NCBI RefSeq assembly: GCF_030013595.1
Contig: NZ_CP122768.1
Strand: one strand, 5' to 3'
DNA from: Escherichia coli
Lineage (GTDB): Bacteria; Pseudomonadota; Gammaproteobacteria; Enterobacterales; Enterobacteriaceae
Length of the DNA stretch: 64,000 nucleotides
In this document: piece after piece, positions 46,653 through 64,000 of the stretch
How positions within the stretch are numbered: position 1 is the stretch's first letter
Layout of the letters: every line of letters starts with the position of its first letter
Position numbers and translations under genes: made by a program
The notes under the pieces: generated by a model
Told to the model about the DNA's origin: nothing
Seen by the model: only the letters and a program-made list of their open reading frames with translations
Database searches by the model: none

Positions 46653-46694
46653 TGGGAAAGATGAGAATAAAATCAAAGCAATAAGCAGTGTCGT

Positions 46695-46720
46695 GAAACC
46701 ACCTTCGGGTGGTTTTTTTG
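46695..46720 (+). terminator. rho-independent terminator of the tRNA operon
   Basis: aaccaccttcgggtggtt hairpin followed by T-run. Confidence 0.75.
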
Positions 46721-46782
46721 TGTCTTCTTTCTCATTTCCGAAGATGCGTCCGAAGATGATTTTTCTCTGGACGCATCATCAT

Positions 46783-47799
46783 TCATTTTCTCTGGCCACC
46801 AACTACGGGCACTACTTTAACTTTTCGGTCATATGCTGCTGTCTGTCGTGGGTTCTTATGCCCGGAAATTGCTTGCTTCTCTTCCAGGCTGCCTTCCAGA
46901 TCAGAGATACCTTTTGCTTTCAGATCATGAAATGTGAAGTCTATTTGCAGATGAGGATATTTTTCCTGTGCTGCCGCTTTGACATCACGCCAACGAGAGT
47001 TAAAACCATCACGGGTGTACTTGCCTCCGGTAGTTTGATGAATCACAAACAGGCTACTGATTCCCGGTTTTAATGGCAGAGAACGAGCCAGAGCTATCGC
47101 TTTCTGCAGACGAGGCGACCAGGCTTTGATTTGCTTAACGCCGGTTTTTCCCTGACGAATGTAGATCCCGGAATCGAACAGCTGGTCTTTCTGTAATGAA
47201 AGTACATCACTCTGTCTGGCCACACATAAGTAGGCAATCTCCATTGCCACGCGAACAACATCAGGAGACACTTCATAAACGGCCTGATATTCTTCATCCG
47301 TAATATAACGTTCGCGTGCTGTCTCTTTAAACTGCTTAACTCCCTGACAAGGATTCCTCTGGACATAACCTCGTTCATAACCCCAACGGAATACCCTGGA
47401 CATAAAGCTTTTTTCCCTATTTGCCTGAGTTCGGCTTGATAAACCGCGTTGATCCATATAGCGCCGAATATGTTCAGGTTTGATTTTATCCGGGTCGATC
47501 TTCCCGAAGACAGGCAGAACTTTTCCGGAATATTTTGTGTAGTCTTTCCTGGTTTCGACTGCCAAATCCATAAAATCAGGGGAGGTCATGAATTGTTCCG
47601 CGAGCGCCTGAAAAGTATTTCTTTCTTTTTCGTCACCGACCGCTTTTTCATATGCCAGCCATACGGCTGATCGTGGCGCATCCAATGCGCACAGGCGTAT
47701 CGCTTTGTTATCTTTATTCCTGAATTCGTAGGCCGCTTTGCCCTGGTAAACACGAGGCGGCATCCAGTTATCTGCTGGGTTCTTTCTCTTTCCGGCCAT
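46783..47799 (-). CDS. int: phage tyrosine integrase
   Basis: ORF 46783..47826; likely start ATG 47799 with GGAG 9 nt upstream; C-terminal catalytic region. Confidence 0.8.
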   Translation of the reverse strand: MAGKRKNPADNWMPPRVYQGKAAYEFRNKDNKAIRLCALDAPRSAVWLAYEKAVGDEKERNTFQALAEQFMTSPDFMDLAVETRKDYTKYSGKVLPVFGKIDPDKIKPEHIRRYMDQRGLSSRTQANREKSFMSRVFRWGYERGYVQRNPCQGVKQFKETARERYITDEEYQAVYEVSPDVVRVAMEIAYLCVARQSDVLSLQKDQLFDSGIYIRQGKTGVKQIKAWSPRLQKAIALARSLPLKPGISSLFVIHQTTGGKYTRDGFNSRWRDVKAAAQEKYPHLQIDFTFHDLKAKGISDLEGSLEEKQAISGHKNPRQTAAYDRKVKVVPVVGGQRK

Positions 47800-48031
47800 T
47801 AAATATTGCTCCAAAATCAGGTTCATCTTCTTTTCGCGTCGTCACCTCCTGTAAATTGCGAAATTTTATTGGGTTCAAGAAATGGCCCCAGGTTGTTTTT
47901 GGGTGCCCGTCAGCCCTTTCCATGAAGAAAATTCCAGCCCGGCGAAGAGCCTCACATTGCTTTGATTTAAGTGGGCTTCCCGTCAGCTCGACCATTTCTT
48001 CTCTGGTGATTATGTCGTGATCGCTTTTCAT
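47768..48031 (-). CDS. small phage protein, DUF4224-like (excisionase-associated)
   Basis: 87-aa ORF overlapping int start, typical xis-like position. Confidence 0.5.
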   Translation of the reverse strand: MKSDHDIITREEMVELTGSPLKSKQCEALRRAGIFFMERADGHPKTTWGHFLNPIKFRNLQEVTTRKEDEPDFGAIFNGRKEKEPSR

Positions 48032-48240
48032 GGTCTTTCCTCATTATGTAGCTTATTGCGTCATCTGCCTTCTGGCAGGCACGGGCAATATCAGACTCGG
48101 TCAAAGTCTGTTTCCTGACGCTGGCCGACAGTCGGCCAATTTTGATATCAAATGCGGAGAGCAGAGTTGCTCCCGGTTGCCATCGCAGCATTGTGATCCT
48201 CCGGTTACTGGTGAAACGCAATGCTAGCGATGGTGAGTTT

Positions 48241-48423
48241 TTATTTCTGATTAGGCGTAATCAGTTCTGGTGGGGGGAATGCCGATTTCTCCCGCGTGAC
48301 CTTAATGTTTTCTGGCAGGTGTAGCCCAAGTTCGCAGCGACTCCGTGCTTCAATAATGCCATTGGTACCATCGGCAAGTACCAGGTGAACCGCGTCACCA
48401 CGCTTTAATGTGAGTTTAAGCAT
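48241..48423 (-). CDS. hypothetical phage protein
   Basis: 60-aa ORF abutting next gene. Confidence 0.4.
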   Translation of the reverse strand: MLKLTLKRGDAVHLVLADGTNGIIEARSRCELGLHLPENIKVTREKSAFPPPELITPNQK

Positions 48424-48992
48424 TAGCGTACCCTCAGCGAACGTTCGCCGCGTTCCAGATGTGCGCCTGGTACCGGGTTTAATAACTCGGCTGGTGGTGT
48501 TTCTCCACGCGCCAGTATTTCGGCGGCAACCGCCTCCGCAGATTCAATCACTTCTTTAATGGCTCGCTTGTTTGGTGTAATAACCGTTTCTACATCAACA
48601 AGTGACACGCCTTCATACTCATCCGGGATCTTATCTTTGCTATCGATAATTACCCGGATAGCCCCCTGTGCATCAGTAAATGTGTTTTTTGCGGTTTTTA
48701 GTTTATCCAGGCCAGCAGCTTGCAGGCAGGCGAGCATATGCTTCCGAATTGCTTTTTCCTTGCCTTCAAAGGACGTCTTACGGGTAGCCAGGCGAGACAT
48801 TTCTTCAGCGCAGGTACTGGCATTGCCCTGTAAATTACGGCAGATGACCATCATGGCGTCCAGTTTGTCTCCCAGTTCTCCTTCCATACCTTCAAGCGTG
48901 TCGGCGATCATCTCTGGCGTCAGTTCGTCGGAGGTTTCTAACAGGTCAATCAGACTGGCATATTCTTTTGCAATAGCGATAGCAGTGCTCAT
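48423..48992 (-). CDS. Siphovirus Gp157-like phage protein
   Basis: 189-aa acidic ORF; family assignment from recall, tentative. Confidence 0.5.
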   Translation of the reverse strand: MSTAIAIAKEYASLIDLLETSDELTPEMIADTLEGMEGELGDKLDAMMVICRNLQGNASTCAEEMSRLATRKTSFEGKEKAIRKHMLACLQAAGLDKLKTAKNTFTDAQGAIRVIIDSKDKIPDEYEGVSLVDVETVITPNKRAIKEVIESAEAVAAEILARGETPPAELLNPVPGAHLERGERSLRVR

Positions 48993-51214
48993 GCTGTTTG
49001 CTCCTGTGCTGCGGTGAGGGCGGTGAGGCGTTCGGTTTTGATTTCATTCAAACGGCGCAGGCGCGAACCAAGATAAGTTGAATACTCCTTATCACCTTTG
49101 GATTCTGCGGCCTTGCGGTGAACTTCTACTTCCCGCGCAATAAGGCCATAGACTTTATTAACTTCATTGGGGGTTACGGCTGCAGCCAGTGTTTTGGCAA
49201 CACCTGAGAGTCGTTCATCCAGTTCTTCACGCAGTCGGGTAGCATCCTCTGCTTTCTCGCTTGCCTTCTTAATACTGTATTCTGTATTCAGCTCGGCGGT
49301 GTAGGCACTATCGTTATGCATATCCATATAAACATCTGCCGCAAATCCCAGATGAGATAGTGCTTTGACGGTGGCATCAGTAAGAGACTTTTTGGAGGCC
49401 TCTTTTTCCATTACCAGTGCCCCTTTGTTATTTTTTGATATGTAATCCGTGTGGCCATATGACGGAATAAATCCTTTCACTCCGTTCCAGATGTACCAGA
49501 GATCTATCCGGATGGTGTGTACTGACAGGCAGAACAGGGAACCGTCAGCATCCCTGACAGGTTTTTGTCCAATAATTTTCCCTGTCTGATCCTGTATAGG
49601 TTCAAGTAATGGCACACCGCGATCCACTCGCTCCTCCTTGATTTCAACTCCCCAACCAATGCCTTCCATTCCCAGCACTTCAGTCGCACGCATCAAAATA
49701 TATTGTGCGCGTATGGAGTGCAGTCCTGCACCGTAATCATTATGTGTGACATACGCAGGATCGGTCCGCTGAACGCGATTCCAGATAGCCAAATTTGCTT
49801 TGCTCTGGTCATCATTCATTGCTGACAGATAATGCTCCATGCGAATTGATGCAGTTTTTTCCTCGGCATGGGGCGGCTCAACCAGCGCGTCAACGTTCTG
49901 CACCAGGTCTTTTACCTGCTCGCTAAGTTTTTCTTGTGGAGGAGTCTCTTCTGCCGGGGTAATAGCTGCAGGTTCCCTCTGTGATACGGCGTTATTTTCA
50001 GGTACGTCATACACATGGCGAGGCGTGACAAACTGCTCACGCAACTGCTGCAAACTACGTTCTCCAGCATTTGCTGCTTCGCTTTTTTCGCCCTGATTTG
50101 AGGGTGTTTCTGACATCATTCCATCAATTGAGAATCGCCCGCCGCCGTGGTTGGTGACTTTTACATCATCCTTTGGTGCTGTTTCCTTTGGCTTCTCTTC
50201 AACAGCATTTGCATCACGCTGCCCGTTAGCTTGCAGCCAGTTGTCGATGTGACTGCGCAGGGATTGCGGGAAGTGGTACGTGTCTTTTGCGGGGGCGCTC
50301 TGAATAACACCGAATACTGATGCGCGGTCATAGGCAAGGATCTGATCCGTTGTGCGCAAGGCCATTGACCAGCGTTTAAAATCCTCCCGATCCTGGCTGA
50401 TTATTTCGTCTGCCGCTTTCAGGACGCTGGGGGTGATTTTTTCCGGGCCAACGGGTAACAGGGCGCAGGCAATTTCACGATCCAGTGTGGCGTGAGTCTG
50501 TTGGTAAGGACGTGCGGATGCTGTTTCTGGTTTTACCTCCGGCAGCATTTCATCGCGTTTACCGGGATTCTCTACCCATTTTTTTATAAATTTGGAGATA
50601 GTCCAACTGGTCGGGTTTTGTTCCTGGGTATCGCAACTTGCCAAAATTGCATGTACCAGATTATTCAATCCAGCAATATGCATGTACTCGATGGGCTTAC
50701 ACGCCACCATGGCATCAAGAACGATGCGGTTAAACGCGTCAACCTCATCCTCACTGTCAGTATCACTGTTGTCGAGCATCTCCAGGTATTCACGCGTCTG
50801 CGCAAGCAATTCACTGTCGACTTCGTTGGCGTCGTGGCTGAACAGCAGGACGGCGGCGAAGCGTTCACGAGCCGGCAGTTTCATCAGGTCGTTAACCTGT
50901 GCGATATCTGCTGAACCGCTATCTGAATCAGCGGGGGTGTTAACTACCCATTTTTCGCCATCAAAACTGTGTTCTGTGGCAAACGTCTCATCAAACTCAC
51001 CGACGCCAGGGCGCGGTTGGCCCGGGGCATCTTCCCAGATTTTAGGTTTGAAATAGTTGTCGCCGTGGTCAGGGTAGGCTTCCCACAATTTGCCGATGAT
51101 GATGTTCTCGGCAACTTTTTTGTTAGGGGCGTCGATGGCGATGGCCAGCGCCGGGATCGCGCCGTTTTTGAGCGCGCCTTTTTTCGCTTCTAACAAGCCG
51201 TTAAAGATGGTCAT
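48989..51214 (-). CDS. large phage protein: acidic N-terminal region fused to Rad52-like single-strand annealing domain
   Basis: 741-aa ORF; C-terminal FCLSVHTIRIDL...SYGHTDY...KALSHLGFAADVY resembles Rad52/Sak core. Confidence 0.55.
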   Translation of the reverse strand: MTIFNGLLEAKKGALKNGAIPALAIAIDAPNKKVAENIIIGKLWEAYPDHGDNYFKPKIWEDAPGQPRPGVGEFDETFATEHSFDGEKWVVNTPADSDSGSADIAQVNDLMKLPARERFAAVLLFSHDANEVDSELLAQTREYLEMLDNSDTDSEDEVDAFNRIVLDAMVACKPIEYMHIAGLNNLVHAILASCDTQEQNPTSWTISKFIKKWVENPGKRDEMLPEVKPETASARPYQQTHATLDREIACALLPVGPEKITPSVLKAADEIISQDREDFKRWSMALRTTDQILAYDRASVFGVIQSAPAKDTYHFPQSLRSHIDNWLQANGQRDANAVEEKPKETAPKDDVKVTNHGGGRFSIDGMMSETPSNQGEKSEAANAGERSLQQLREQFVTPRHVYDVPENNAVSQREPAAITPAEETPPQEKLSEQVKDLVQNVDALVEPPHAEEKTASIRMEHYLSAMNDDQSKANLAIWNRVQRTDPAYVTHNDYGAGLHSIRAQYILMRATEVLGMEGIGWGVEIKEERVDRGVPLLEPIQDQTGKIIGQKPVRDADGSLFCLSVHTIRIDLWYIWNGVKGFIPSYGHTDYISKNNKGALVMEKEASKKSLTDATVKALSHLGFAADVYMDMHNDSAYTAELNTEYSIKKASEKAEDATRLREELDERLSGVAKTLAAAVTPNEVNKVYGLIAREVEVHRKAAESKGDKEYSTYLGSRLRRLNEIKTERLTALTAAQEQTA

Positions 51215-51244
51215 TGGTCTTTCCTCATTACAGGTCAGTGGTCT

Positions 51245-51565
51245 TTAGTAGGGGATTTCATCAGTATCTGGCGTGTATTCGATGCAAAGTAACTGCTGGA
51301 TTTTGTCATCGATAGCAGCAATACGCTGTTGGGCGTCGGCGACTGTTTTCTGTTTTTGCTCATACAGCTGCTCGACCTGCAAACCGATGATGTCGATTGG
51401 CTGGGGCTGGTTGACGGTAATTTCAATTTCGCGGCTTTCCAGAAGGATGTACCTGTCTGGAAAATTTTTTGACATATCAACAGTCGCAACAAGCAGCTTT
51501 TCGTGGCTGAAAGTTGAAGTTGCATAATTAATAAAGAGTGTTACTGGGATGGTGCGCGCTTCCAT
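51245..51565 (-). CDS. hypothetical phage protein
   Basis: 106-aa ORF with AAGGAG RBS. Confidence 0.5.
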   Translation of the reverse strand: MEARTIPVTLFINYATSTFSHEKLLVATVDMSKNFPDRYILLESREIEITVNQPQPIDIIGLQVEQLYEQKQKTVADAQQRIAAIDDKIQQLLCIEYTPDTDEIPY

Positions 51566-52561
51566 AGCGACTCCTTGGTGATGTATACTCGGGACCGATC
51601 AGCGAATATTGATCAGCTTCCATAGCGTCAGTGTCGTTGGTCTTTCCTCATCACAAGTTTGGTCACTTGTGATAAATCCGAATGGTTTGGTCGCCGTTCG
51701 GGGTAACTGGCCCGCCTTGTGCGGGTCTTTTGCTATCTAAAGGGTGCCGGTTACGTTTCCGGCGTCGTTATGTTTCCATCACGACCGTACGGGGCTGGTC
51801 TTTCCTGTTTTGAGCTGGTCAGGCTCATGGTCAACGCTGGTCAGGCGTGGTACTTCCTCCGGTCTTTCCCTGGTGTCACGCTGCGGGTTTGGCCTCTCCT
51901 GTTGGGGACTCAGGCACAGCGATAAAACCTGGCTGTGTGAAAAAATGGCCCATCGTGCGGACTGGGCAAAGGCTAAACACAGCAAATTGATGATGGGCGC
52001 CCGGAATCGAACCGGGTAACGGGCAGGGAGTTCCCGTTAAACACCTGTTCACCACAACCGGGAGCGCACTCCGCCATTTCAAAATTTAACGACAAAGCTC
52101 AAAGTTGAGTCGATGAAGTGCGCTCTCGTGTTGTAGCCAGGACTCTTCCCTGGTGGTCACACCGTATCGCCTTGATGGTGAATCAATCGCTCATACCTGG
52201 CTGTGGCTTGCACATTCCGGCTAGCTGCTATGGAGACAACGCGTTAAGGCTCCGCTTCCATCCAGACCGCTTCGACACATGTGCCATATGCCGGCGAAGT
52301 CTTTCCCTCTGTCATCGTGTTGGCGCCGACGCGCAAAATTTGATGCCGTCTTTCCGGCTGTCAGAACGTGTTTCTGAACAACTGCCGCTGGGTAAGCGTT
52401 GTTGATGAAAGTGACTTTACAATTTGTATTTGTAATGGTCAACGTATTTTTAAAAAATAATTTGTAGTTAGGGGCAAAAAAATATTCACTGTGTAAAGGT
52501 GTTTTTGTGTTAGGGGGAAAGTTGCATGCCAGCAGCGGCTGGCCTGGAAATTTGAACTGAA

Positions 52562-52975
52562 CTATTTTGTCTGGTTTTTGGCTTCAAGTAGTTCTTTTAG
52601 CAGTAGATCGAAGTGCTCTCTTTTTTCTTTTAGCTCATTGATTAATTTATTTTTTTCGCTCTCAGGCAGTCCTCTGAATAGTTGCAGTAGAGCCTGTTCT
52701 TGCGGGGTTAGTTCTTGATTGTAATTACCCGGGTGTAGCGTGGATTCATCCAAATATTCACCTTCATTCATGAAGAAAAAATGAACAGGGTATCCGGTCA
52801 CTTTTGCTAGCTTGTCTAATTTATCTTTTCTTGGAGTTACCCCATTACACCATGCCTGAACTGATTGAGCCGTAACCCCAATATGGCGAGCTAACTCAGA
52901 TTGAGACCAGCCTAAGTCTTTTAGAATCCGTTGTAGTCGGCTAGCAAAAGCCATGTTTTTCGTTTTTGTGTTCAT
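52562..52975 (-). CDS. phage repressor-like HTH protein (cI-like)
   Basis: ORF 52562..52990 opens on TTG; HTH (GWSQSELARHIGVTAQSVQAW); divergent from cro-like gene; start uncertain. Confidence 0.7.
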   Translation of the reverse strand: MNTKTKNMAFASRLQRILKDLGWSQSELARHIGVTAQSVQAWCNGVTPRKDKLDKLAKVTGYPVHFFFMNEGEYLDESTLHPGNYNQELTPQEQALLQLFRGLPESEKNKLINELKEKREHFDLLLKELLEAKNQTK

Positions 52976-52994
52976 ACCGTAAGGATACAAGGTT

Positions 52995-53060
52995 TAATTG
53001 TAGGGAGCATTGCAAATATAATTTGTAATTACAGTTATGATTTGTAATGATGGCGCGGAC
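52995..53060. promoter_or_regulatory. candidate operator/promoter region between divergent repressor and cro-like genes
   Basis: Repeated ATTTGTAAT half-sites (ttgcaaatataatttgtaattacagttatgatttgtaatga). Confidence 0.45.
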
Positions 53061-53073
53061 ACAAGGAGTCCAT

Positions 53074-53304
53074 ATGGATAAACAACTGCAAGACAAAATT
53101 CTTTCCGTAATGAGTCAATCCGAGTTAGGGCGGCGATTAGGGAAAAAACCACAAACGGTAAGCCTCTGGTTCAAAGGAAGGGTTCCCGGTGAAGAGGTTT
53201 TGCGCACATCTGAAGCTCTTGAATGGCGCGTGACCCCCCATGATCTTAGACCGGATCTTTACCCAAACCCAGATGACAGCTTGCCTAAAACGAAAGCAGC
53301 TTAA
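53074..53304 (+). CDS. Cro-like HTH regulator
   Basis: ORF 53047..53304; ATG 53074 after AAGGAG; HTH (SQSELGRRLGKKPQTVSLW). Confidence 0.7.
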   Translation: MDKQLQDKILSVMSQSELGRRLGKKPQTVSLWFKGRVPGEEVLRTSEALEWRVTPHDLRPDLYPNPDDSLPKTKAA

Positions 53305-53362
53305 CTGTTGGTGAGCCCCAAATCTGATTAAGCGTAATCAATTTTTAGCGACAGGAGACGCT

Positions 53363-53839
53363 ATGGAAAACCAAGAGGAATTACAAAAAGAGATTTTGAC
53401 CTGGGCGGCAAGGGCAGGGCAGGAACTCGTCACGATTGAAATCTGCCGGGCCTGGTTCAGTCAGGGACGCAATGATGAGTTGAGACTACATGAATTTGAG
53501 GACGCGGACGGCAATGTGGACTGGAGAGCCATCAACAACAATCGGCAGAAAATCTTTCGCTGGTTACGTGGCGAGACAACGGCGGCGCGCCGAAAAACTC
53601 AGGTGCTGGCCAGTGTGATGAAAGCCGTGCTACCCGCAGAACGGCGGGCGCGTCTGGAGTCGCCGGGCGATCCCGTTTTGCTGGCAACGCTGGCGGCAAA
53701 AGAAGGGGTGGAAGCGATTAACGCTGTACATCTCCACTTCGCGCCAGAGATAACTATTCAGGAAATTGACGAAGCAATAGCGGCGCTGGTAGCGACGCGA
53801 GGGGCAGTGATAAGCACTGCGCAAGGCCATCATGCATGA
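53363..53839 (+). CDS. hypothetical phage early protein
   Basis: 158-aa ORF after cro-like gene. Confidence 0.5.
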   Translation: MENQEELQKEILTWAARAGQELVTIEICRAWFSQGRNDELRLHEFEDADGNVDWRAINNNRQKIFRWLRGETTAARRKTQVLASVMKAVLPAERRARLESPGDPVLLATLAAKEGVEAINAVHLHFAPEITIQEIDEAIAALVATRGAVISTAQGHHA

Positions 53840-53878
53840 GCGCCTGACCAGCGTTTAACTTATACCGAGGAAAGACCG

Positions 53879-54103
53879 ATGTTAAGACATATTGACCGCA
53901 TTACCTGGCGTAACGGCTGGCACCTGAATGGACGCCCGGCACATGTTGCAGAGATCCAACCTATTTTTGATGGGCGTATGGCTGCCGCGCTTTCGGTGTG
54001 GGAGCAGTATGAATCCAGGAAGGTCGAGTTGCGCGACAAAGGGCTGAGCAATGCGGACTATGAAGCCGGTTGTCGTCAGATAGCCGAAGCTCTGGAGATC
54101 TGA
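53879..54103 (+). CDS. hypothetical phage protein
   Basis: 74-aa ORF preceded by conserved leader ...accgaggaaagaccgATG. Confidence 0.45.
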   Translation: MLRHIDRITWRNGWHLNGRPAHVAEIQPIFDGRMAAALSVWEQYESRKVELRDKGLSNADYEAGCRQIAEALEI

Positions 54104-54105
54104 GT

Positions 54106-55182
54106 ATGAGTCGTTTGCTGATTAACGAAAACCCCCTTCAGGTCCTGCCCACGTTGGCATGCACTATAGGGTTGAATGAAGCCATCGTTCTACAGCAAAT
54201 CCACTACTGGCTGAATTCATCTCAAAATTTCTTCGAAAATCGCCACTGGGTGTACAACAGTGTGACCGATTGGCAAGAACAATTCCCGTTCTGGAGCGAG
54301 TCGACAATAAAACGCGTGCTGGCCAATCTGGAAAAATTGAATGTGGTATTTACTGGGAACTTTAACAGTGATGCCTGGGATAAAACCAAGTGGTATTCAA
54401 TCAATTATGCCCAGTTATGTAAGATTGAAGAGACAACATTCCCTGTGGCCAATCGATTAGGTCAAGTTGACCCAATCGAAGAGGTCAATGTGACCCAAGC
54501 ATCAGGTCAAGTTGACCCATGCGCTAAGGTCAAAATGACCCAATCTCTTACAGAGAATACAACAGAGAGTACTACAGAGAGTACTACAGAGATAAAAGAT
54601 CCCCCTTACCCCCAAAAGGGGGAGGGCGAGGAAATCATTCTCGCTGACGCTCAAAAAGCTCTGAACTACTACAACGAGAAAGTCGGTACACGCTGCCGCG
54701 ACGTTAAACCGTTTGTCATGCTGCTGACTGCCACCACCACCCGCGCTGGTTACAGCGTGGCTGAGATTCAGTTAGTAATTCGTTGGGTTATTGCGACATG
54801 GCGCCGTCGTAGCGGAAGCGTGCCGAAACCTGCGAACATTTGCCGCGTAAACCGGTTTGACGGATATCTGGCTGACGCTGAGGCGTGGGCCACTGCTGAG
54901 GCTGCCGTTGACCCTGCTGAAGTTGTGAAGGGCTACAACGAGATTCTGGGCGACCTGCTACCTATAGCTGAAATTGATACTGACCGCCGTCGGGCAATCC
55001 TGCGCCTGCTGGCACATATGCGCACGCAAACTCTTGGCGCATTTATCGGCTACTTCGAAAAATTCCGCGATAACGCCCCAGACTTCTATTTCGGCGGCGA
55101 ATATCGCACCGGCTGGCGGGCAGGGTTTGATTACCTGATGAAGCCAGAAACACTGCGTAAAACCAGGGAAGGGGCATTATGA
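54106..55182 (+). CDS. phage replisome organizer (O-like initiator)
   Basis: ORF 54070..55182; ATG 54106 after GGAG; iterons inside the coding sequence. Confidence 0.7.
   Translation: MSRLLINENPLQVLPTLACTIGLNEAIVLQQIHYWLNSSQNFFENRHWVYNSVTDWQEQFPFWSESTIKRVLANLEKLNVVFTGNFNSDAWDKTKWYSINYAQLCKIEETTFPVANRLGQVDPIEEVNVTQASGQVDPCAKVKMTQSLTENTTESTTESTTEIKDPPYPQKGEGEEIILADAQKALNYYNEKVGTRCRDVKPFVMLLTATTTRAGYSVAEIQLVIRWVIATWRRRSGSVPKPANICRVNRFDGYLADAEAWATAEAAVDPAEVVKGYNEILGDLLPIAEIDTDRRRAILRLLAHMRTQTLGAFIGYFEKFRDNAPDFYFGGEYRTGWRAGFDYLMKPETLRKTREGAL
54459..54542 (+). repeat. four iterons AGGTCAAnnTGACCCA at 22-23 bp spacing (candidate ori)
   Basis: Copies at 54459, 54482, 54504 and 54527; followed by tandem acagagagtact repeats. 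Confidence 0.7.
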
Positions 55183-56608: not shown

Positions 56609-57019
56609 ATGACCACCATTTCAGGCAAATTAGAGTACCCGTCGGACAAAGGACACATAGACGACGGTAAAAACTATCTCGACGTCATTTTGTGGAATAT
56701 GAACGCCGGGCCACGTGCGCGCACTCGTGCGGTTTTTGTACCAAGACCCAAAGCAGGCAATTTTTCAACACCAGCTCAGCCTGCCCGTCAGGCATCCGTA
56801 GCCGCAGCGCCAGCAGTGAAATGTAAGGGTAAAACGCACATCGGGATCGCGATTCGCAGAAATGGTGAGCGGCAAGTGAAACTCCACGAAACAGCGACAA
56901 CCTGGTGTGCTTCACCGCATGAAACTTACGACAAGATAACCGGGCAGCGCATTGGTGCGCCTGGTCGCTGTCGCCTGCTGTTGAGCTCCATCACTCCGAT
57001 AGAAAAGAAAGGGGCGTGA
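56609..57019 (+). CDS. hypothetical phage protein
   Basis: 136-aa ORF preceded by conserved leader ...accgaggaaagaccaATG. Confidence 0.45.
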   Translation: MTTISGKLEYPSDKGHIDDGKNYLDVILWNMNAGPRARTRAVFVPRPKAGNFSTPAQPARQASVAAAPAVKCKGKTHIGIAIRRNGERQVKLHETATTWCASPHETYDKITGQRIGAPGRCRLLLSSITPIEKKGA

Positions 57020-57020
57020 T

Positions 57021-57257
57021 ATGACCGGGCAATCAGATTACCTGCCGCCCGGCTTACCACACAACCGCGCCAAATGGCCCCAGGAATACCAGCTTAAAGA
57101 GCACTACGACATGCGAGCGGCGGCGCTGATCCGCCAACTCTTTGAGAAACGTATTCCGAGGGGAAGCGTGATTGAGCAAATCGGAATGACGCCGGATACA
57201 TACCGGGAATTTTTCAGAGAGCGTCTGAACTACTGGAGAGGGGTGATGGAACAATGA
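57021..57257 (+). CDS. hypothetical phage protein
   Basis: 78-aa ORF tightly packed in operon. Confidence 0.4.
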   Translation: MTGQSDYLPPGLPHNRAKWPQEYQLKEHYDMRAAALIRQLFEKRIPRGSVIEQIGMTPDTYREFFRERLNYWRGVMEQ

Positions 57258-57565
57258 AATACAAACGGTGGGTGCGTGCGGAAGTCGTAATCATCAAACA
57301 ATGTGCAGGCAGCATGACAGTTGAACGTATAGGGCAGCTTATTGGCAGAACCGGTGCAGCGGTACGCACAAAAGCGCGCGAGCTGAAAATCTGTATGTAT
57401 CTGCGGGGTAATTATCATCAGTCAGCGAAATACTGCCAGGAGGATATCGAGCTGGCAAGGGAATTACATCAGTCGGGTATTAATCGCCAGGATATCGCGG
57501 AAAAACTCGAAATGCCGATCGGAGCGGTGAATCAGTTTGTTTATTTTGAGCGGAGGATTTCATGA
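57254..57565 (+). CDS. hypothetical phage protein, possible HTH
   Basis: 103-aa ORF overlapping neighbours by 4 nt. Confidence 0.4.
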   Translation: MKYKRWVRAEVVIIKQCAGSMTVERIGQLIGRTGAAVRTKARELKICMYLRGNYHQSAKYCQEDIELARELHQSGINRQDIAEKLEMPIGAVNQFVYFERRIS

Positions 57566-57786
57566 AAGAACTTTTTCTGGCATTTGTGCCCCGGTTTATT
57601 AATGACCAGATCGCACTGACTAATAATGGTGAACAATATGAAATTGCCTGCAGCATGGTGGATGTGAATCCTGGCGAACGGTATGACGCGATGTGTGACC
57701 TGAAAATATTTACCTGGCTGGGTTGGGCTATTCCGTGTGGAGAACCAACCAATATTCGCCCATTTGAGAGCAGGGAGGCTGTATGA
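57562..57786 (+). CDS. hypothetical phage protein
   Basis: 74-aa ORF. Confidence 0.35.
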   Translation: MKELFLAFVPRFINDQIALTNNGEQYEIACSMVDVNPGERYDAMCDLKIFTWLGWAIPCGEPTNIRPFESREAV

Positions 57787-57949
57787 GTGAATTGAAAATA
57801 CGAATGAACCCAAGTCGCAAGGCGATCAAATTTGCGCAGTGTGTCTTGCAGATGGCTGAAGGTGAATGTTATATAAAAGAGTGTCATGGATAACAAGGCA
57901 CTCACTATCAATGATTATCTGTTAAAAAAGCAATCGACAAGGAGTTGAA

Positions 57950-58207
57950 ATGCAGACTCAATTAAAGGTTAAAGGCGGTTATAGTCATTTTTTCTTCGCC
58001 AATATTGAAGTCTCACAAAGAGAGTCAAATGGCGGTTTGGTTGTCGTTAGGGATGTTAATATACCTATTACAACAACAACTCTCTCTCTGTTAGAGAATT
58101 ACGCTGTAGGGCAGGTGTTGACGTTAGAACAAAAGAATGGCGATTTTTTTGATGTGTATTACGTTGGAACTGATGGGAATAACTTTCAGTTTTCAACGCA
58201 CTGCTAA
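57950..58207 (+). CDS. hypothetical phage protein; its 3' end lies in left copy of a ~200-bp direct repeat
   Basis: 85-aa ORF with GGAG RBS. Confidence 0.45.
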   Translation: MQTQLKVKGGYSHFFFANIEVSQRESNGGLVVVRDVNIPITTTTLSLLENYAVGQVLTLEQKNGDFFDVYYVGTDGNNFQFSTHC

Positions 58208-58310: not shown

Positions 58311-58419
58311 TAGAGAATACATCTTTCAAAGTACCGCCCATATAAAACAGTTACATATGCACTTGATGACTAAGCTGGCACCAGGTTAACACCATGCGCC
58401 AGCTTGAAGGAGACTTCAG

Positions 58420-58593
58420 TTATTGGTTTCTGAGGAAAGCGATTCTTGAAAGGGTCATTTGCGTCTGGCAGTCGACCATTTTCTTGACTTCAGCATCTGT
58501 TCCTTTCTTGACTTCAGCATCTGTTCCCTGCATTGAAACTTTACCGCACATAGCATCCTTAGTTTTGATCCACTGGCGCTGAGAAGGCAGCAA
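58420..58593 (-). pseudogene. 3' fragment of lipoprotein gene split by IS629
   Basis: Joining across the IS with one copy of the ACT target duplication restores one frame to TAA at 58420..58422. Confidence 0.65.
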
Positions 58594-58649
58594 CTTGAAC
58601 CGCCCCGGAAATCCTGGAGACTAAACTCCCTGAGAAAGAGGTAAACAGG

Positions 58650-58976
58650 ATGACTAAAAATACTCGTTTTTCCCCCGAAGTCCGTCAGCGGGCGATTCGT
58701 ATGGTTCTGGAAAGTCAGGATGAATATGACTCACAGTGGGCGGCAATTTGTTCCATTGCCCCAAAGATTGGCTGTACGCCGGAGACTCTGCGTGTCTGGG
58801 TTCGCCAGCATGAGCGGGATACCGGGGGCGGTGATGGTGGGCTCACCAGCGCTGAACGTCAGCGTCTGAAAGAGCTGGAACGTGAAAATCGTGAACTGCG
58901 CCGCAGTAACGATATCCTTCGCCAGGCTTCCGCTTATTTTGCGAAGGCGGAGTTCGACCGCCTCTGGAAAAAATGA
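58650..58976 (+). CDS. IS3-family transposase OrfA
   Basis: 108-aa [25 protein letters not shown] recognised as IS629/IS1203 OrfA. Confidence 0.9.
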
Positions 58977-59863
58977 TGCCACTGCTGGATAAGCTGCGTG
59001 AGCAGTACGGGGTCGGACCGGTATGTAGCGAACTGCATATTGCCCCGTCAACGTATTACCATTGTCAGCAACAGCGACATCATCCGGATAAACGCAGTGC
59101 CCGTGCGCAGCACGATGACTGGCTGAAGAAAGAGATACAGCGCGTATACGATGAAAATCACCAGGTATACGGTGTGCGTAAAGTCTGGCGTCAGTTGTTA
59201 CGGGAAGGTATCAGAGTGGCCAGATGCACTGTGGCACGTCTCATGGCAGTTATGGGACTTGCCGGTGTTCTCCGGGGTAAAAAGGTCCGCACTACCGTCA
59301 GCCGGAAAGCCGTTGCCGCAGGCGACCGCGTAAACCGTCAGTTCGTGGCAGAACGACCTGACCAGCTGTGGGTGGCTGATTTTACTTACGTCAGCACATG
59401 GCAGGGCTTCGTCTATGTGGCGTTTATCATTGATGTGTTTGCCGGATACATCGTGGGGTGGCGGGTCTCATCGTCTATGGAAACGACATTCGTGCTGGAT
59501 GCGCTGGAGCAGGCGTTGTGGGCCCGTCGTCCGTCTGGCACCATCCATCACAGCGATAAAGGCTCTCAGTATGTGTCACTGGCCTATACGGAGCGACTAA
59601 AAGAAGCCGGATTACTGGCATCAACAGGGAGTACAGGCGACTCGTATGACAACGCGATGGCTGAGAGCATCAATGGTCTTTACAAAGCGGAGGTAATACA
59701 CCGTAAGAGCTGGAAAAAACGTGCAGAAGTGGAACTGGCCACACTAACGTGGGTGGACTGGTATAACAATCGACGATTGCTGGGAAGGCTGGGCCATACT
59801 CCTCCGGCAGAAGCAGAAAAAGCTTATTATGCTTCCATCGGAAACGATGATCTGGCAGCCTGA
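58973..59863 (+). CDS. IS3-family transposase OrfB (DDE integrase-like)
   Basis: 296-aa ORF overlapping orfA in -1 frame. Confidence 0.9.
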
Positions 59864-59905
59864 GTTCACAGATAAAACACTCTCCAGGAAACCCGGGGCG
59901 GTTCA

Positions 59906-60680
59906 ACTCTTTTTTCTTCGCCGGGGTTAACTTGCTCCAGACGGTATTCAAATCAGAGTCAGCATTTGCAAATGCCATTCGGGACTGATCAAGGCTTTCA
60001 GATTTTTGCGGCTGAAGTTGTGCCTGCCTCTCTTTTTGCTTCTCCGCCTCATACCTGGCCTGTTCCTGTGCCCTGAGTTGCACCTGTTGTTCCGCTTCAA
60101 TTTGACTCTGTTGGGCATCCTTAGCCTGCTGGATTTTCTGCTGCTCAACGATCGGGTTGATAATGGAAAGCGATGTCAGTAAAGCGGCGCCCACTGATAT
60201 CGGATTATCAGAAGAGGTTTTTACAAAAACGTTTTTCTGATCGTCGGTCGCCTGCACGGTGTAGGTGATACGCCTTGAAAAGGCGTTTGCGTTGTTCTCC
60301 AAAAACAGATTTTCCATTTGCTTATCGAGATTACGATTAAAATTCTTTCTGTAAGCATCTGAAAGCTGGACGTACTCGTTCGCAGGTAGAGTCATCGTCA
60401 CGGTCCCTTCACAAGTTTTCATTGTGCTGCCCGTGTCACTTGATGTTGTGGAGATTTCAGAGACGGCTAGTTTGATCTTGTCCAGTGTGCTTCGTTTGGT
60501 CTGATTAGTGACATCAGGGTATTTATCGACCTGTTCAGAGAGTCCTTCATAAGCAGATTTTTTTAATAAATCCATGAGAGCTGATTGGGTCATTTCCGAA
60601 GAACAACCGATCTCATCTTTTTTGTTATCACAGCCTGTAAGGGCAATGGCGAGTAAGAGTACTGAGTATTTTAATCTCAT
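59906..60680 (-). pseudogene. 5' fragment of lipoprotein gene split by IS629
   Basis: ORF 59670..60680 has lipobox LTGC; after codon 258 it reads into the IS629 right end. Confidence 0.7.
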
Positions 60681-61436
60681 GAATTCCCTTTAGAGTAAGG
60701 ATTGGTTTTTAAGACGCGGTCTGTAATCAGTTCCGAGAGCTACAGTAAACAACGCTGAGCACTGAACGCATCACAGGCAAGGTAAAAGGTGATATCGGCA
60801 AAGGCTGTGAAACCTTTAATTCAACAGATGGGAACGGTATGCACAGGATCCTGTAACGACGCTCCCAAAACTGGAAACCTGTAAGGCATGTTTTCGCTGC
60901 TGAACTTAATATACGAACCTGCACTATCATGAACATATTTTATATCGTTATACCCCGAGTGATTGTGCCCGGCAATGGATAGTGTCCTGGAGGAATTATT
61001 TCTAATGTAAAAGGAAGATATTTAATTTCGATGTGGGATTATTACCTGTCTATAAGAACAATGACTTTATCTGGCAGTAAGCAGACATCTATTAGCTTAC
61101 TGAAGGGGGGCTGTGATTTGACCATTAACGGCATGAGATATATTGTCTATTGGTGATTGTTCTGAGGCCGATATCACGTTAACGACCAAGTAAAATAACA
61201 TGAAAAATTATTTATTAATGATTGCCAGCATTAAATGTAGTGATACCTCATTAGCAGGGTGCTCCGCAATGACTGCGATGAACTAAAAAATCAGTCATAA
61301 CCATGAAAAAAACAAGTGTATCAGCGAAATTAAATCTGGTGAAAGCATTTAATTACTTGTTAATGACGCAATAAAAACATACTATGGAAATGTAACAGCT
61401 AATCTACAGTTCTTGTCAATAGGGGCGCACAAGAAA

Positions 61437-62027
61437 ATGTTAAATGAATTTAAGGAAAAGCTACTATCCGACGATATCCGCGATGTCTACCAACGATACC
61501 TTTTAGGACATGACATCTGGTATTTTCGGGAACAAAAAAAATCAATAACCTTTGCTAAAGATTATGATGAGTTTAAGCTATATATGTCTAAGAAGCTTGA
61601 AATTCATGTAAATAATATTGCAATTGTTGGAAGTGCTAAGATGGGATTCAGCTTGAGCCCTGATAAAAATTATCGAACATTTAACGATGAGTCAGATATA
61701 GACTTGGTTTTAGTATCCGACAGAATTTATAAATCTTCCTGGATGGCATTTATTGAATTACAATCAAAGAATTATTTGCCTGTATATGCTCCTGTAGCTA
61801 AAAATATTTTCAAAGGATTCGTGTCATTGAAGGAGTTAGATATTAGAGTCGATTTTTTTAATAAATGGTCCCGTAACGTTGAACCATTAAAAAAAGACAT
61901 TCAAACTATTTTTGGAATACCTAACGACATCAACTACAGAATTTATGACTCTTGGGAGTCCGTTGAACGCTATCACATAGCTGGGTTGAATAGTCTAAAA
62001 GATAAGTTACAAGGACAATTGATATGA
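61437..62027 (+). CDS. small Pol-beta-superfamily nucleotidyltransferase-like protein
   Basis: ORF 61413..62027 opens on TTG, first ATG 61437; IVGSAKMGFS...ESDIDLVLV fits the GS...DxD pattern; low GC; stop overlaps next start (ATGA). Confidence 0.65.
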   Translation: MLNEFKEKLLSDDIRDVYQRYLLGHDIWYFREQKKSITFAKDYDEFKLYMSKKLEIHVNNIAIVGSAKMGFSLSPDKNYRTFNDESDIDLVLVSDRIYKSSWMAFIELQSKNYLPVYAPVAKNIFKGFVSLKELDIRVDFFNKWSRNVEPLKKDIQTIFGIPNDINYRIYDSWESVERYHIAGLNSLKDKLQGQLI

Positions 62028-63082
62028 GAGCTATTGATCTAATTAAAGTTGAATCGAAAGACATTAAATGGTTGACGGATAATTTGAAATCAGGTGTTAT
62101 TACAGTTGATAATTCATATCAGAGAAAATATATCTGGCAGCAAAAAGACCAAGTGGCCTTAATTGAGACAATATTAATTGGCTACCCAATCCCTGAGATT
62201 TACCTTTGGGCAAATAATACTGATCCTGACACTGGAGATACTAAATATTCAATTGTAGATGGACAGCAAAGGCTAACCACAATCCAGCGATATTTAAATG
62301 ATGAGTTTAAGTTAAGCAAAGCAGCTATAGATGATAAAGAAGCCGACTATAGTGGGAAAATTTTTTCAGAATTGTCGGCAGATAACAAACGTGATTTTTG
62401 GCGATACCAATTCTCATCCAGATTTATTAATGAATCATTGAGATATGATGAGATTGCAAAGTTATTTTTACGTCTAAATAGAACAAATACTACGTTAAAT
62501 CCTCAAGAACTTCGTAATGCTGAATTTAATGGCGAGTTTTTAAGATTAGCCGAAGAAATTGCACAAAATGAATTTTGGGATAATTATAAGATATTTACTC
62601 AGTCAGATATCCGTCGGATGCAAGACATTCAATTCATCAGCACATTATTGATTTTCTTACGAATGGGTATTGAGCAGGATAATACACAAAAATCAATTAA
62701 TCGAGTGTATGATCAATACAATGAGAATTACCCTGAGGCGACTGAGGACAGAATTATCTTTAACGAAGTGTTAAGGATCATATCTCAAATTATCAACAAT
62801 AAACAAGTATTAGAATCAGTTGTAAAGAAAAAAGGCCATTTGTATTTTATATTTGTGCTGGCATACTATTATTTACAGCTTAGTAAATCTAAGCTTGTTG
62901 ATATGAATGTTATTAGTTCAAAGCTCGAGGATTTTTTTAATATTTATGAGTTAAATGAACAAGATAACCCCCATCCACTGGTTGAGGAATATAGATTCCT
63001 CAGCCAAGAGGGTTCAAAGAAGAGTCATAACAGACAGCGTAGATTTGATATTTTGAAAGAATTTTGCTCTTTACATGATTAA
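62024..63082 (+). CDS. DUF262 (ParB-like, GmrSD N-terminal type) protein; no recognisable nuclease domain
   Basis: 352-aa ORF with YQRKYIW and IVDGQQRLTT motifs; helical C-terminal half without HNH/DUF1524 motifs. Confidence 0.75.
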   Translation: MRAIDLIKVESKDIKWLTDNLKSGVITVDNSYQRKYIWQQKDQVALIETILIGYPIPEIYLWANNTDPDTGDTKYSIVDGQQRLTTIQRYLNDEFKLSKAAIDDKEADYSGKIFSELSADNKRDFWRYQFSSRFINESLRYDEIAKLFLRLNRTNTTLNPQELRNAEFNGEFLRLAEEIAQNEFWDNYKIFTQSDIRRMQDIQFISTLLIFLRMGIEQDNTQKSINRVYDQYNENYPEATEDRIIFNEVLRIISQIINNKQVLESVVKKKGHLYFIFVLAYYYLQLSKSKLVDMNVISSKLEDFFNIYELNEQDNPHPLVEEYRFLSQEGSKKSHNRQRRFDILKEFCSLHD

Positions 63083-63182
63083 ATGACGAAAGTGGGTTGT
63101 TTATAAGAATTGAATAAACAACCCATCATTTTAATGTACTCTGAATCCTCTCATTCTTAGTGAAATATTGTTTTTAGAACAC

Positions 63183-63374
63183 GTATTGACGTTAGAACAA
63201 AAAATAGATTTTTTTGTGATGTATTACGTTGGAGTTGATGGGATAATTATATGTTTTCAATACATTGTTAATTTATCAAGACCCTGCGACTAAGGTGTTC
63301 GAAAATCGACTAAAGTCTGTTTCATAGAGAGAGTTACTTGCGTTTAAAAAGGTATTTGGTCACGACCAACACGA
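63183..63374. repeat. right copy of diverged ~200-bp direct repeat (decayed copy of 3' end of 57950..58207 gene)
   Basis: Aligns to 58114..58310; reading frame broken by stops and indels. Confidence 0.7.
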
Positions 63375-63603
63375 GGCCGAATACCTCAGTTTAAGTACCG
63401 CTCATGTACAACAGTAACGTTTGCTGATAGTGTCGCATTATCTTGCAGAGGACGCAGGTTAAATAGAACAAGCATATGTACCTGGTTTTTGTAATATTGG
63501 GTATAACATATGCTTTATAGGAGCGCGCTCAATGACCAACCGAGAAAGAATCTCCTGACAGATACAGTTATTTTCACCCTCTCCATAACATAAGGGAGTT
63601 TTT

Positions 63604-64000
63604 ATGTCGGAAGTGAGTATCGTAGAAGACGCCCCACGCCCAGTAGTCGCCGAATTGGCAGATCTGTTACAAGCACAACCATTTCATCAGAATCAATATG
63701 ATAACTTATGTCGCTTTATGATTTATTTTTCCCTGGCTGAATCAAAGTTAACATCAATGGCTGCTGGCCTTGGTAGAACTGACGCACTGGCACAGGAACT
63801 GGTTGTGCATAACGGCATGGACAGTCAGACCATAGATGATTGCTATCGTTATTTTATACGACGCTATCGAGACAGCCCTGATAGCGATTACCGCTTCAAT
63901 AAACTGGCCCCGCCTGAGTATGTTAAGAATGCAATCAGAGAACGCTTTGTTACGCTACTTCAGATACAGTCTCCAACAATTGAAGATAAAATCAGCTTTG
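63604..64000 (+). CDS. hypothetical phage protein, 3' end beyond window
   Basis: Open frame from ATG 63604 (MSEVSIVEDAPRPVVAELADLL) with AGGGAG RBS, no stop before window end. Confidence 0.5.
   Translation, partial: MSEVSIVEDAPRPVVAELADLLQAQPFHQNQYDNLCRFMIYFSLAESKLTSMAAGLGRTDALAQELVVHNGMDSQTIDDCYRYFIRRYRDSPDSDYRFNKLAPPEYVKNAIRERFVTLLQIQSPTIEDKISF

Follow-up and report, generated by a model that had tools for sequence, protein, structure and literature searches.

The glyW-cysT-leuZ chromosomal tRNA operon occupies positions 46350..46652 on the forward strand of the window, the whole 64,000-nucleotide stretch of Escherichia coli DNA analysed here (NZ_CP122768.1), as supported by ARAGORN, Rfam tRNA matches and identity to K-12. 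ARAGORN placed tRNA-Gly(GCC) at 46350-46425, tRNA-Cys(GCA) at 46480-46553 and tRNA-Leu(UAA), encoded by leuZ, at 46566-46652; leuZ is intact and identical to its K-12 counterpart. Directly 3' of leuZ, as in the K-12 ncRNA annotation, lies a forward-strand copy of the small RNA 3'ETS-leuZ (46653..46719), a sponge for RyhB and RybB, together with an intrinsic terminator (~46697-46719). The gene order in K-12 MG1655 is pgsA, glyW, cysT, leuZ, 3'ETS-leuZ and yecA, with 128 bp separating the 3'ETS and yecA at the empty site. Alignment revealed that the window follows K-12 through leuZ, the 67-nt 3'ETS and the terminator, save for one base at 46663 that falls outside the RyhB-complementary block, and that complete divergence begins at 46723, just past the terminator. 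The initial annotation had described an integrase and a full early region right after the leuZ terminator, at a position held by yecA in K-12; the alignment, the int, xis and early genes found downstream of 46723 and the MG1655 annotation bear out both statements.

The closest relative of the element beyond this point is the RefSeq-annotated prophage of strain HCP5S3_I2 (NZ_CM149870.1), which is colinear and 99.9% identical, the differences being IS insertions alone; the arrangement does not reflect chance. The first gene of the element encodes a tyrosine integrase on the reverse strand (46783..47826; RefSeq relatives start at 47799, giving 338 aa), as indicated by the PHROG integrase family (phrog_1, 4e-51), Pfam domains PF00589 (4.7e-8) and PF22022, phmmer matches to lambda Int structures at 1e-8, and alignments with lambda Int and within the integrase clade. 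Of the canonical R-K-H-R-H/W-Y residues, the integrase has five of six: an HDLK motif puts lysine where lambda has its second arginine (R311, in HELR). The integrases of mEp390, ZF40 and ST64B all have this lysine, so the substitution is a clade trait and no lesion. The tyrosine in QTAAYDRK is likewise invariant across the clade and, by our reading just past the printed lambda alignment, corresponds to lambda Y342. Adjacent to the integrase gene lies a reverse-strand excisionase gene of the DUF4224 family (47768..48031; phrog_1266, 1.8e-34; annotated by RefSeq in the relative).

Further along, four reverse-strand genes (48241..51565; PHROG families 2482, 253, 2489 and 2479) make up a leftward early operon, encoding a 60-aa protein (48241-48423), a Gam-like/Gp157 protein (48423-48992), a 741-aa exonuclease that is intact in the window (48989-51214) and a 106-aa protein (51245-51565). 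In the relative, an IS3-family element lies inside the exonuclease gene. A PHROG search yielded no N-family match among the proteins of this operon. A promoter scan and direct sequence reading identified a pL-like promoter on the reverse strand at 52414..52442 (TTGACC, 17-nt spacer, TAAAGT), which is overlapped by ATTACAAAT-type operator-like repeats found also between cI and cro. The CI-like helix-turn-helix repressor (52562..52990, reverse strand) was assigned by PHROG transcriptional regulator/repressor families and RefSeq annotation. It is followed on the forward strand (53047..54103; phrog_35, phrog_163 and phrog_2465) by genes for a Cro-like regulator (53047-53304), a CII-like/YdaT-family protein (53363-53839) and a 74-aa protein (53879-54103), and then by a replication module (54070..56570) comprising an O-like initiator (54070-55182; phrog_428, 3e-73) and a DnaB-type replicative helicase (55179-56570; phrog_19, 2.6e-110). 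The window thus holds the immunity switch, with CI-, Cro- and CII-like genes and shared operator-like repeats, as well as the replication module by which a prophage is recognized.

Five small forward-strand early genes follow (56609..58207; PHROG families 5148, 1105, 323 and 2241, and RefSeq annotation), located at 56609-57019, 57021-57257 (theta-subunit-like), 57254-57565 (DNA-binding), 57562-57786 and 57950-58207. Next comes an LprI-family cargo gene on the reverse strand (58420..60680; phrog_5094), split into fragments 58420-58595 and 59904-60680 by a forward-strand IS3-family element (58596..59903) that is 98.9% identical to IS629. The latter was delimited by phage-collection matches and BLAST breakpoints and contains an ALIL frameshift pseudoknot (58931-59047; Rfam RF01497, 119 bits). 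It is missing from the equivalent site in the relative, where the LprI-family gene is uninterrupted (L001 15447-16394). A composition profile set apart a two-gene forward-strand cargo cassette of low GC content (61413..63082; 32-34%). One product is a 352-aa GmrSD_N/DUF262 protein (PF03235, 1e-24; PADLOC NsnA, 4e-41, and PD-T4-2_A, 2.5e-19), while PADLOC and further family searches returned no family match for the other, of 204 aa. A Menshen (NsnABC) defence system was considered and rejected, as the NsnA-like protein alone matches and its neighbour matches nothing. The start of a hypothetical forward-strand gene (63604..64000), corresponding to L001 20654-21202 in the relative, runs past the window end. 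Compared with relatives, all core early genes (int, xis, exonuclease, cI, cro, O-like and dnaB) are full length.

Beyond the point at which the window stops, the HCP5S3_I2 prophage carries on with Q, holins, endolysin, terminase, portal, protease, decoration and capsid proteins, followed by a tail module with baseplate, sheath, tube and late control D, and finally by attR and yecA. Three more distant lysogens show the same full layout with late genes. Across these four prophages the attL-attR distance is 43.7-48.5 kb, in keeping with the earlier estimate that the element exceeds 17 kb. Many members of the family show decay: the closest relative has an IS within its large terminase gene and a frameshift that makes one small-terminase copy a pseudogene, and internal stops turn Q (L004) or portal (L005) into a pseudogene in two other family members.

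Three-way alignment of attL, attR and the K-12 attB defined a common 126-bp identity block, with copies in four lysogens, that spans 46597..46722 (forward strand) in the window. Its start lies in the leuZ anticodon loop, and it takes in the rest of the tRNA gene, 3'ETS-leuZ and the terminator, ending 61 bp from the end of int; beyond it, the phage arms are unrelated. All four lysogens contain the same repeat pair, with attR followed directly by the spacer and yecA exactly as in K-12, where leuZ, 3'ETS and yecA are contiguous. The distal direct repeat and the empty-site strain, both proposed initially as checks, were found in these lysogens and in K-12, respectively, and the lack of late genes or of an att repeat downstream that had been named as a possible refutation was not seen in any of the four relatives. 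As the repeat extends from the anticodon loop through 3'ETS-leuZ to the terminator, insertion takes place within leuZ itself, and the gene is restored in the process. The initial annotation was hence right about a prophage insertion but not in placing it "next to" leuZ, since the 126-bp identity begins inside the anticodon loop. Nor is the leuZ-yecA junction "replaced": it is split, with the original 3' part at attR and yecA behind it.

An anticodon-loop class is said to have been included by Williams in 2002 among the sublocations used by tRNA-gene-targeting integrative elements. In the present case, identity starts within leuZ and passes its 3' end, and the intact tRNA lies at the integrase-proximal junction, as in that class. 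The single mismatch within the block (46663; G in the attL of the window, A in attR and K-12) is not systematic across lysogens and therefore does not locate the crossover. It is compatible with strand exchange where the identity block begins on its 5' side, within the anticodon loop; we infer exchange there from the left identity boundary that the window phage has in common with mEp390. With exchange at this point, a lysogen would express leuZ with a phage-derived 3' half, the 3'ETS and terminator behind it would likewise be phage DNA, and the 3'ETS-leuZ copy in the window would be phage-supplied. The proposed attP would bear its own leuZ copy from the anticodon loop on, plus 3'ETS-leuZ and the operon terminator; the integrase (46783-47826) would recombine this copy with the 3' half of chromosomal leuZ by Campbell-type site-specific recombination. 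At attL, the junction beside the integrase gene, this would leave leuZ whole, as it is in the window; at attR, the distant junction beyond the window end, yecA would adjoin a half-tRNA that lacks a promoter and is followed by a 3'ETS.

To gauge prevalence, we consider complete E. coli genomes: int and xis adjoin leuZ in 429 of 5,426 (~8%), ST131 included, and 432 have the same attR-yecA junction. The att repeat occurs at 7,117 places in 5,424 genomes, that is ~1,690 more copies than genomes; as the prophage explains just ~430 of these, other elements use the leuZ site too.

Taken together, we are highly confident that positions 46597-64000 represent the leftmost 17.4 kb of a ~44-48-kb temperate phage genome, integrated Campbell-type into the leuZ 3' half, and that the early region and head genes of this phage are of lambda type and its contractile tail is of P2 type. 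The distal part in the strain of the window, beyond the window end, presumably resembles that of the relative. It is very unlikely that the element is instead a non-phage integrative island with a merely phage-like early region. Such elements do sit at leuZ in O145:H28 and APEC, most surplus att-repeat copies in E. coli come from elsewhere than this prophage, and the window stops before the distal part; however, the 99.9% colinear relative has the full lysis, packaging, head and tail set, and a phage layout just as complete is seen in the three more distant relatives. Loss of chromosomal DNA upon insertion, be it yecA or the original junction, is extremely improbable, as this idea draws on the word "replacing" in the title of the initial annotation and on the absence of yecA from the window, whereas attR, spacer and yecA stand as in K-12 in four of four lysogens and the attR-yecA junction recurs in the 432 genomes.

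Whether the temperate phage integrated at leuZ is still inducible is an evenly balanced matter: the chances are about equal that the window's strain carries a defective remnant, integrated in the same way but yielding neither excision nor particles. IS elements are frequent in the family, and one splits the LprI-like gene in the window; the closest relative has damaged exonuclease and terminase genes, and other members have a stop in Q or portal. Moreover, phage-collection searches found no deposited virion genome matching the early region. A record named 'vB_EcoM-705R4' was rejected as virion DNA, as it ends in yecA and is hence an extracted prophage. Against a remnant speaks that the core early genes in the window are all full length and that its IS disrupts a cargo gene alone.

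Comparison with known phages shows how these parts are combined. mEp390 (Hendrixvirinae, NC_019721) has an integrase 63% identical to that of the window, with the HDLK motif, and an excisionase upstream. The attP annotated for mEp390 has the same left boundary and is made up of a leuZ 3' half that starts in the anticodon loop, followed by a 3'ETS-like spacer and a terminator. This copy has diverged, however: one T-stem pair is changed in a compensated manner and the spacer differs, and the remaining genome lacks DNA-level similarity to the window phage. Lambda shares the early order of int, xis, recombination genes, cI, cro, cII-like and replication genes, the later order seen in the relative (Q, lysis, terminase, gpW, portal, protease C, D, E and FI) and Campbell-model integration by a lambda-Int-family enzyme. 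In contrast to lambda, the window phage has no N homologue in the leftward operon, a DnaB-type helicase instead of P, an att site in a tRNA gene rather than between gal and bio, lysine at the second catalytic arginine and, in its family, a contractile, P2-like tail. The resemblance to P2 is confined to this tail module as seen in the relative, with baseplate V, W, J and I, tail fibre, sheath, tube, X and late control D in P2 order, whereas the early, head and packaging genes resemble those of lambda.

The one unusual item inside this otherwise ordinary prophage is a structured RNA motif of ~185 nt in the pL leader (52113..52300, reverse strand), with six helices including a pseudoknot, which covariance model R1 scores at 139 bits (E=5.5e-42). 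Pair counts revealed strong covariation with compensatory changes. The motif is present in >100 distinct Enterobacterales phages and prophages, namely lambda-like phages (including Stx2 phages, mEp390 and mEp460), epsilon15-like phages and P1/P7-like phage-plasmids. It matches 95 phage records with one copy per genome, always lies in sense orientation in an early-operon leader, often beside phage tRNA genes, and has gone almost entirely unannotated. Searching divergent copies against Rfam 15 in three lenient scans yielded sub-threshold chance matches alone. In its lambdoid setting, in phages without N, the motif stands between pL and an intrinsic terminator; in the window, a terminator scan placed a hairpin with a T-run (51938..51967, reverse strand) between the motif and the first leftward gene, and phage BUCT708 has a stronger terminator at the same relative position. 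A lambda-type N/nut system downstream of pL was rejected, given the missing N family match and the structured RNA in the leader. HK022 put is reportedly a two-hairpin element of ~70 nt downstream of both pL and pR. Like put, the motif belongs to the nascent leader just past pL of a lambdoid phage without N, with a terminator next. Unlike put as so described, it is ~185 nt long, has six helices and a pseudoknot, occurs once per genome and extends to P1-like and epsilon15-like phages. The 95 matching records do not include HK022, and a put-type antiterminator was therefore rejected. Tentatively, the motif might be an undescribed class of structured phage RNA regulating early transcripts in cis, for example by terminator read-through or processing of tRNA-bearing transcripts.

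As to integration at leuZ, the finding is correct but already known, given the ~8% prevalence, the attP of mEp390 and the listing of leuZ as a prophage or island insertion site in papers on STEC O121, STEC O145 and APEC O78, including integrative elements in O145:H28 and a 'leuZ-associated island' in APEC. Compared by site alone, the elements of STEC O121:H19, STEC O145:H28 and APEC O78 occupy the same chromosomal position, but some are integrative elements and no phages. The prophage itself is one more copy of a widespread E. coli family at a documented tRNA site and matters little. As the att block includes the whole 3'ETS-leuZ, lysogeny probably swaps the expressed host copy of this RyhB/RybB sponge for a phage copy. 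In the present case, host and phage copies differ by a single base outside the RyhB-complementary block; that of mEp390 is much more diverged, making a regulatory effect testable there. If the leader motif, in turn, controls early transcription, lambdoid phages would have a second RNA-based substitute for N/nut, one that they share with P1-like and epsilon15-like phages.

Alignment of the window to K-12 showed where the chromosome gives way to the prophage. K-12 MG1655 has the order pgsA, glyW, cysT, leuZ, the 67-nt ncRNA 3'ETS-leuZ and, after a further 128 bp, yecA. Within the window, ARAGORN called tRNA-Gly(GCC) (46350-46425), tRNA-Cys(GCA) (46480-46553) and tRNA-Leu(UAA) (46566-46652), with uvrC and pgsA located upstream, matching the annotated relative, a 99.9% identical prophage in NZ_CM149870.1 (strain HCP5S3_I2; pig faeces, United Kingdom). 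The window and K-12 agreed across leuZ, the 3'ETS and the terminator with a single base difference, at 46663, and from 46723 on they were unrelated, bearing out the initial annotation's proposal of a switch directly after the leuZ terminator.

As the window ends inside the element, the distal part was read from lysogens. NZ_CM149870.1 covers the whole query, and direct BLAST returned colinear blocks of 99.76-99.95% identity, with no differences other than IS elements, of which the window has one and the relative two at other places. Beyond the window, the relative encodes DUF1367 and DUF1364 genes, antiterminator Q, two holins, an endolysin and terminase, the large terminase gene being broken by ISVsa5 and a small-terminase copy being a frameshifted pseudogene. 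These are followed by gpW, portal, S49 protease, decoration protein, major capsid protein and FI, and by a P2-type tail comprising baseplate, sheath, tube, tail protein X and late control D. At its far end lies a 105-nt feature annotated by PGAP as 'tRNA-OTHER', and then directly yecA, tyrP, yecH and ftnA. Three more distant lysogens (dog, marsupial and ST131 blood isolates), 96-97.5% identical across the shared parts, showed the same layout and flanks, and across the four lysogens the att repeats lay at distances of 43,656, 45,512, 44,057 and 48,459 bp. Late genes and an att repeat were thus present in every relative looked at, confirming the observation of a prophage at leuZ and supporting its interpretation. 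In many relatives, essential late genes are interrupted by IS elements or stop codons.

Three-way alignment of attL (the leuZ-proximal junction), attR (the far junction beside yecA) and attB (the K-12 empty site) delimited a 126-bp identity block at 46597-46722. It begins in the leuZ anticodon loop (ATTTAAAATCC), covers the 3' half of the tRNA and the entire 3'ETS-leuZ, and ends after the T-run of the terminator; the phage-side sequences at both junctions are unrelated to K-12. At attL, leuZ is intact. Because attR retains only the half-tRNA with the 3'ETS, PGAP made its odd 'tRNA-OTHER' call (2720-2824 in L002, the relative's attR-side locus), which joins the half-tRNA to upstream phage sequence and is an artefact of annotation caused by the duplication of the leuZ 3' half. 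The only mismatch between attL and attR is at 46663, which is G at attL versus A at attR and in K-12. This G is common to the window and its closest relative; the other lysogens carry A on both sides, one of them with a different variant at attR. As the G is absent from the other lysogens, we rejected the mismatch as a marker of the crossover. Nearly all empty sites have A at this position, and the G is compatible with a phage allele.

The whole 3'ETS-leuZ small RNA, a sponge of RyhB and RybB, lies inside the att repeat (46653-46719 in the window; attR copy at 2825-2891 in L002), and each lysogen therefore holds two copies. On the Campbell model, attL sequence beyond the crossover, in the 3' direction, comes entirely from the phage. 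Since, moreover, the left boundary of the identity block falls in the anticodon loop both in this phage and in mEp390, we infer from the sequences that the leuZ 3' half, 3'ETS and terminator expressed by the lysogen would be supplied by the phage; the expressed 3'ETS-leuZ copy is probably phage-derived. The variant at 46663 (A11G in the 3'ETS) falls outside positions 24-43, the block complementary to RyhB, and no effect on RyhB pairing is predicted, as judged by position alone given that whole-length duplex prediction is inflated by A/U runs. The 3'ETS copy in the mEp390 attP is far more diverged than the window and attR copies are from each other.

The tyrosine integrase beside this site (46783-47826, minus strand; phrog_1, 4e-51; Pfam PF00589 and PF22022) was aligned to lambda Int structures, which revealed equivalents of R212, K235, H308 and H333. 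The tyrosine nucleophile (QTAAYDRK), located just past the printed lambda alignment, is invariant across the integrase clade. Lambda R311, the second catalytic arginine (motif HELR), is replaced by lysine in the window integrase (HDLK; FTFHDLKAKG). The integrases of mEp390 (63% identical), Pectobacterium phage ZF40 (64%) and Salmonella phage ST64B (49%) all share HDLKAKG unchanged, which identifies the lysine as a clade feature, not a lesion. The mEp390 record has an annotated attP directly beside int. On the other strand this attP reads as the 3' half of leuZ, in which a T-stem pair is compensated, followed by a 3'ETS-like spacer that has diverged and by a terminator; leuZ targeting by this integrase clade is therefore already on record.

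Prophages of this kind are widespread. The integrase and excisionase of this prophage lie beside leuZ in 429 of 5,426 complete E. coli genomes, and the same attR-yecA junction occurs in 432 of the 5,426. The att block itself was found at 7,117 places in 5,424 genomes, that is, about 1,690 more copies than matching genomes; as only about 430 of these extra copies belong to this prophage, other elements also use the leuZ site. In the literature, STEC O121:H19 is described with leuZ as one of its prophage sites; in STEC O145:H28 leuZ hosts an integrative element, and for APEC O78 a 'leuZ-associated island' is listed. A megablast search against deposited phages returned the IS629-like element only, with no virion genome covering the early region. 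The 'phage' record vB_EcoM-705R4, a 93.6% match to the late region, was rejected as proof of a virion: because it ends in yecA, it represents a member of the leuZ prophage family extracted from a chromosome. The element is a common, already known kind of prophage at a known site, and the initial annotation had it right.

Within the window, the minus-strand genes, directed towards leuZ, comprise the integrase, a DUF4224 excisionase (phrog_1266, 1.8e-34), a 60-aa protein, a Gam-like/Gp157 protein, an exonuclease (741 aa, intact), a 106-aa protein and a CI-like repressor. No N-like protein was found among the proteins of the leftward operon. The plus strand encodes Cro-like and CII-like/YdaT-family regulators, an O-like initiator, a DnaB-type helicase and five small genes, followed by cargo, namely an LprI-family gene split by an IS and then a low-GC cassette. 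The interrupting IS3-family element (58596-59903; 98.9% identical to IS629, with an ALIL frameshift pseudoknot) is missing from the 99.9% identical relative, which has two other IS3-family copies, in the exonuclease gene and after the DUF262 gene, in addition to its ISVsa5. The cassette (61413-63082; GC 32-34%) encodes a 204-aa protein with no family match and a GmrSD_N/DUF262 protein resembling Menshen NsnA and PD-T4-2_A, making it candidate anti-phage defence cargo, although it lacks the partner genes of a known defence system. Two direct copies of a sequence of about 250 bp (58100-58360 and 63170-63425; BLAST identity 82%) bracket the cargo block. The left one takes in a terminator-like hairpin as well as the 3' end of the 57950-58207 gene. 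The arrangement suggests that the cargo entered through recombination at this junction. Across the prophage family, the segment between the replication and Q modules is a variable cargo hotspot (15400-21200 in L001, the relative's early side; 12300-19500, 12400-19300 and 13600-19600 in L004, L005 and L006 from the three further lysogens), holding ORF6N, LprI-like, GIY-YIG, ImmA/IrrE, SMEK, methyltransferase or DUF262 genes depending on the member.

Ahead of the leftward early operon is a pL-like promoter (52442-52414, minus strand), which is overlapped by operator-like repeats also present between cI and cro. Between this promoter and the first leftward gene lie about 830 nt with no convincing ORF, unannotated in all four relatives. 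By blastn, this leader has a full-length match (71%) in phage BUCT708, and a core of about 170 nt is 70-76% identical in unrelated phages, where it is mostly unannotated. Conserved small ORFs were rejected as the reason for this conservation, the similarities being scattered over several frames and both strands and no leader ORF being conserved over its whole length. A covariance model placed a structured RNA motif of about 185 nt at 52300-52113 (minus strand, 139 bits), downstream of which lies a terminator-like site (51967-51938, minus strand).

From an alignment of 53 representatives, less than 92% identical to each other, we propose a pseudoknotted fold of six helices, which shows strong covariation. 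It would open with a 5' hairpin (GCA loop), followed by a long-range helix around a variable arm, the invariant single strand GGUAGCCGGAAUGUGCAAG, and a 3-bp closing helix containing a 4-bp hairpin with the loop YUCACCA, whose CACC would pair with a downstream GGUG to form the pseudoknot; a 3' hairpin with the loop GAAGAGA completes the model. Pseudoknot variants are fully compensated (AACC/GGUU and UGGUC/GACCA). For copies all selected by an exact 17-mer, and a structure partly read from those same sequences, 92.8% of cells were paired versus 31-50% when partners were slid by 1-3 columns, changes on both sides occurred in 15 of 33 pairs (115 cells), and none of 500 shuffles reached the observed pairing by any measure.

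Searching IMG/VR with the invariant 17-mer recovered at least 120 stretches, corresponding to at least about 100 distinct copies. Using the SPN1S copy as query, 95 deposited phage records matched, including Stx2a and Stx2c phages, mEp390, mEp460, the cdtI phage and TL-2011b as well as P7, D6, RCS47, SJ46, SopranoGao and Uetakeviruses. Copies of the motif come from more than 100 distinct phages of Enterobacterales, spanning lambda-like, epsilon15-like and P1-like types, and hardly ever carry an annotation; the covariance model placed exactly one in each phage genome. The window copy matched 625 of 5,426 E. coli genomes, including 154 plasmid places. In one-genome-per-species data, 24 of 36 17-mer hits passed the covariance model (22 in Enterobacterales, two on very short metagenome-bin contigs); the hits outside Enterobacterales were rejected as chance, as 12 of the 36 failed the model and about 35 chance hits are expected in 298 Gb. 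Rfam 15 contains no family for the motif, lenient scans of three divergent copies returned nothing, and hits to RprA, tRNA-Sec and others were far under gathering scores. Among the papers covered by a full-text search, none printed the motif sequence. HK022 put, Pas sRNAs, AgvB, AsxR and STnc100 were rejected on architecture, genome position or missing Rfam match, the latter four being located elsewhere in the genome or belonging to Rfam families without a match to the motif.

In all cases the motif has the sense orientation and opens a transcription unit. A CI-like repressor gene on the same strand lies about 270 nt upstream in 31 of the 99 distinct copies listed, and an Stx2a phage has this arrangement too; nutL and putL occupy this same slot. 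In Uetakeviruses the terminase and portal genes are separated by a small divergent operon with the motif at its head, and the epsilon15 record annotates repressor, IHF and RNase III sites upstream of this position. P7 and SJ46 carry the motif with a tRNA gene on one side and ban on the other. About a third of the copies listed adjoin a same-strand tRNA gene: in 24 copies tRNA-Arg(UCU), some 60 nt downstream, and in nine an adjacent tRNA(CAU) (examples at L008 2786-2859, L012 2333-2405 and L135 1835-1907). The window has only a degenerate tRNA-like T-arm hairpin (CCCGGTTCGATTCCGGG; about 52013-51991, minus strand) downstream of the motif.

Promoter-like sites 50-125 nt upstream were enriched (31 of 87 copies versus 1 of 87 in the control) and terminators within 150 nt downstream were rare (9 of 87), figures that together weaken the reading as a stand-alone, terminated sRNA gene. 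BUCT708 has the order promoter, motif, strong terminator and first gene, as does the window with a weaker terminator. Among candidate functions, we prefer a cis-acting leader that would govern read-through or processing of early transcripts; its main rival is a processed trans-acting RNA. Of the features of this element, it is the leader RNA motif that merits follow-up.
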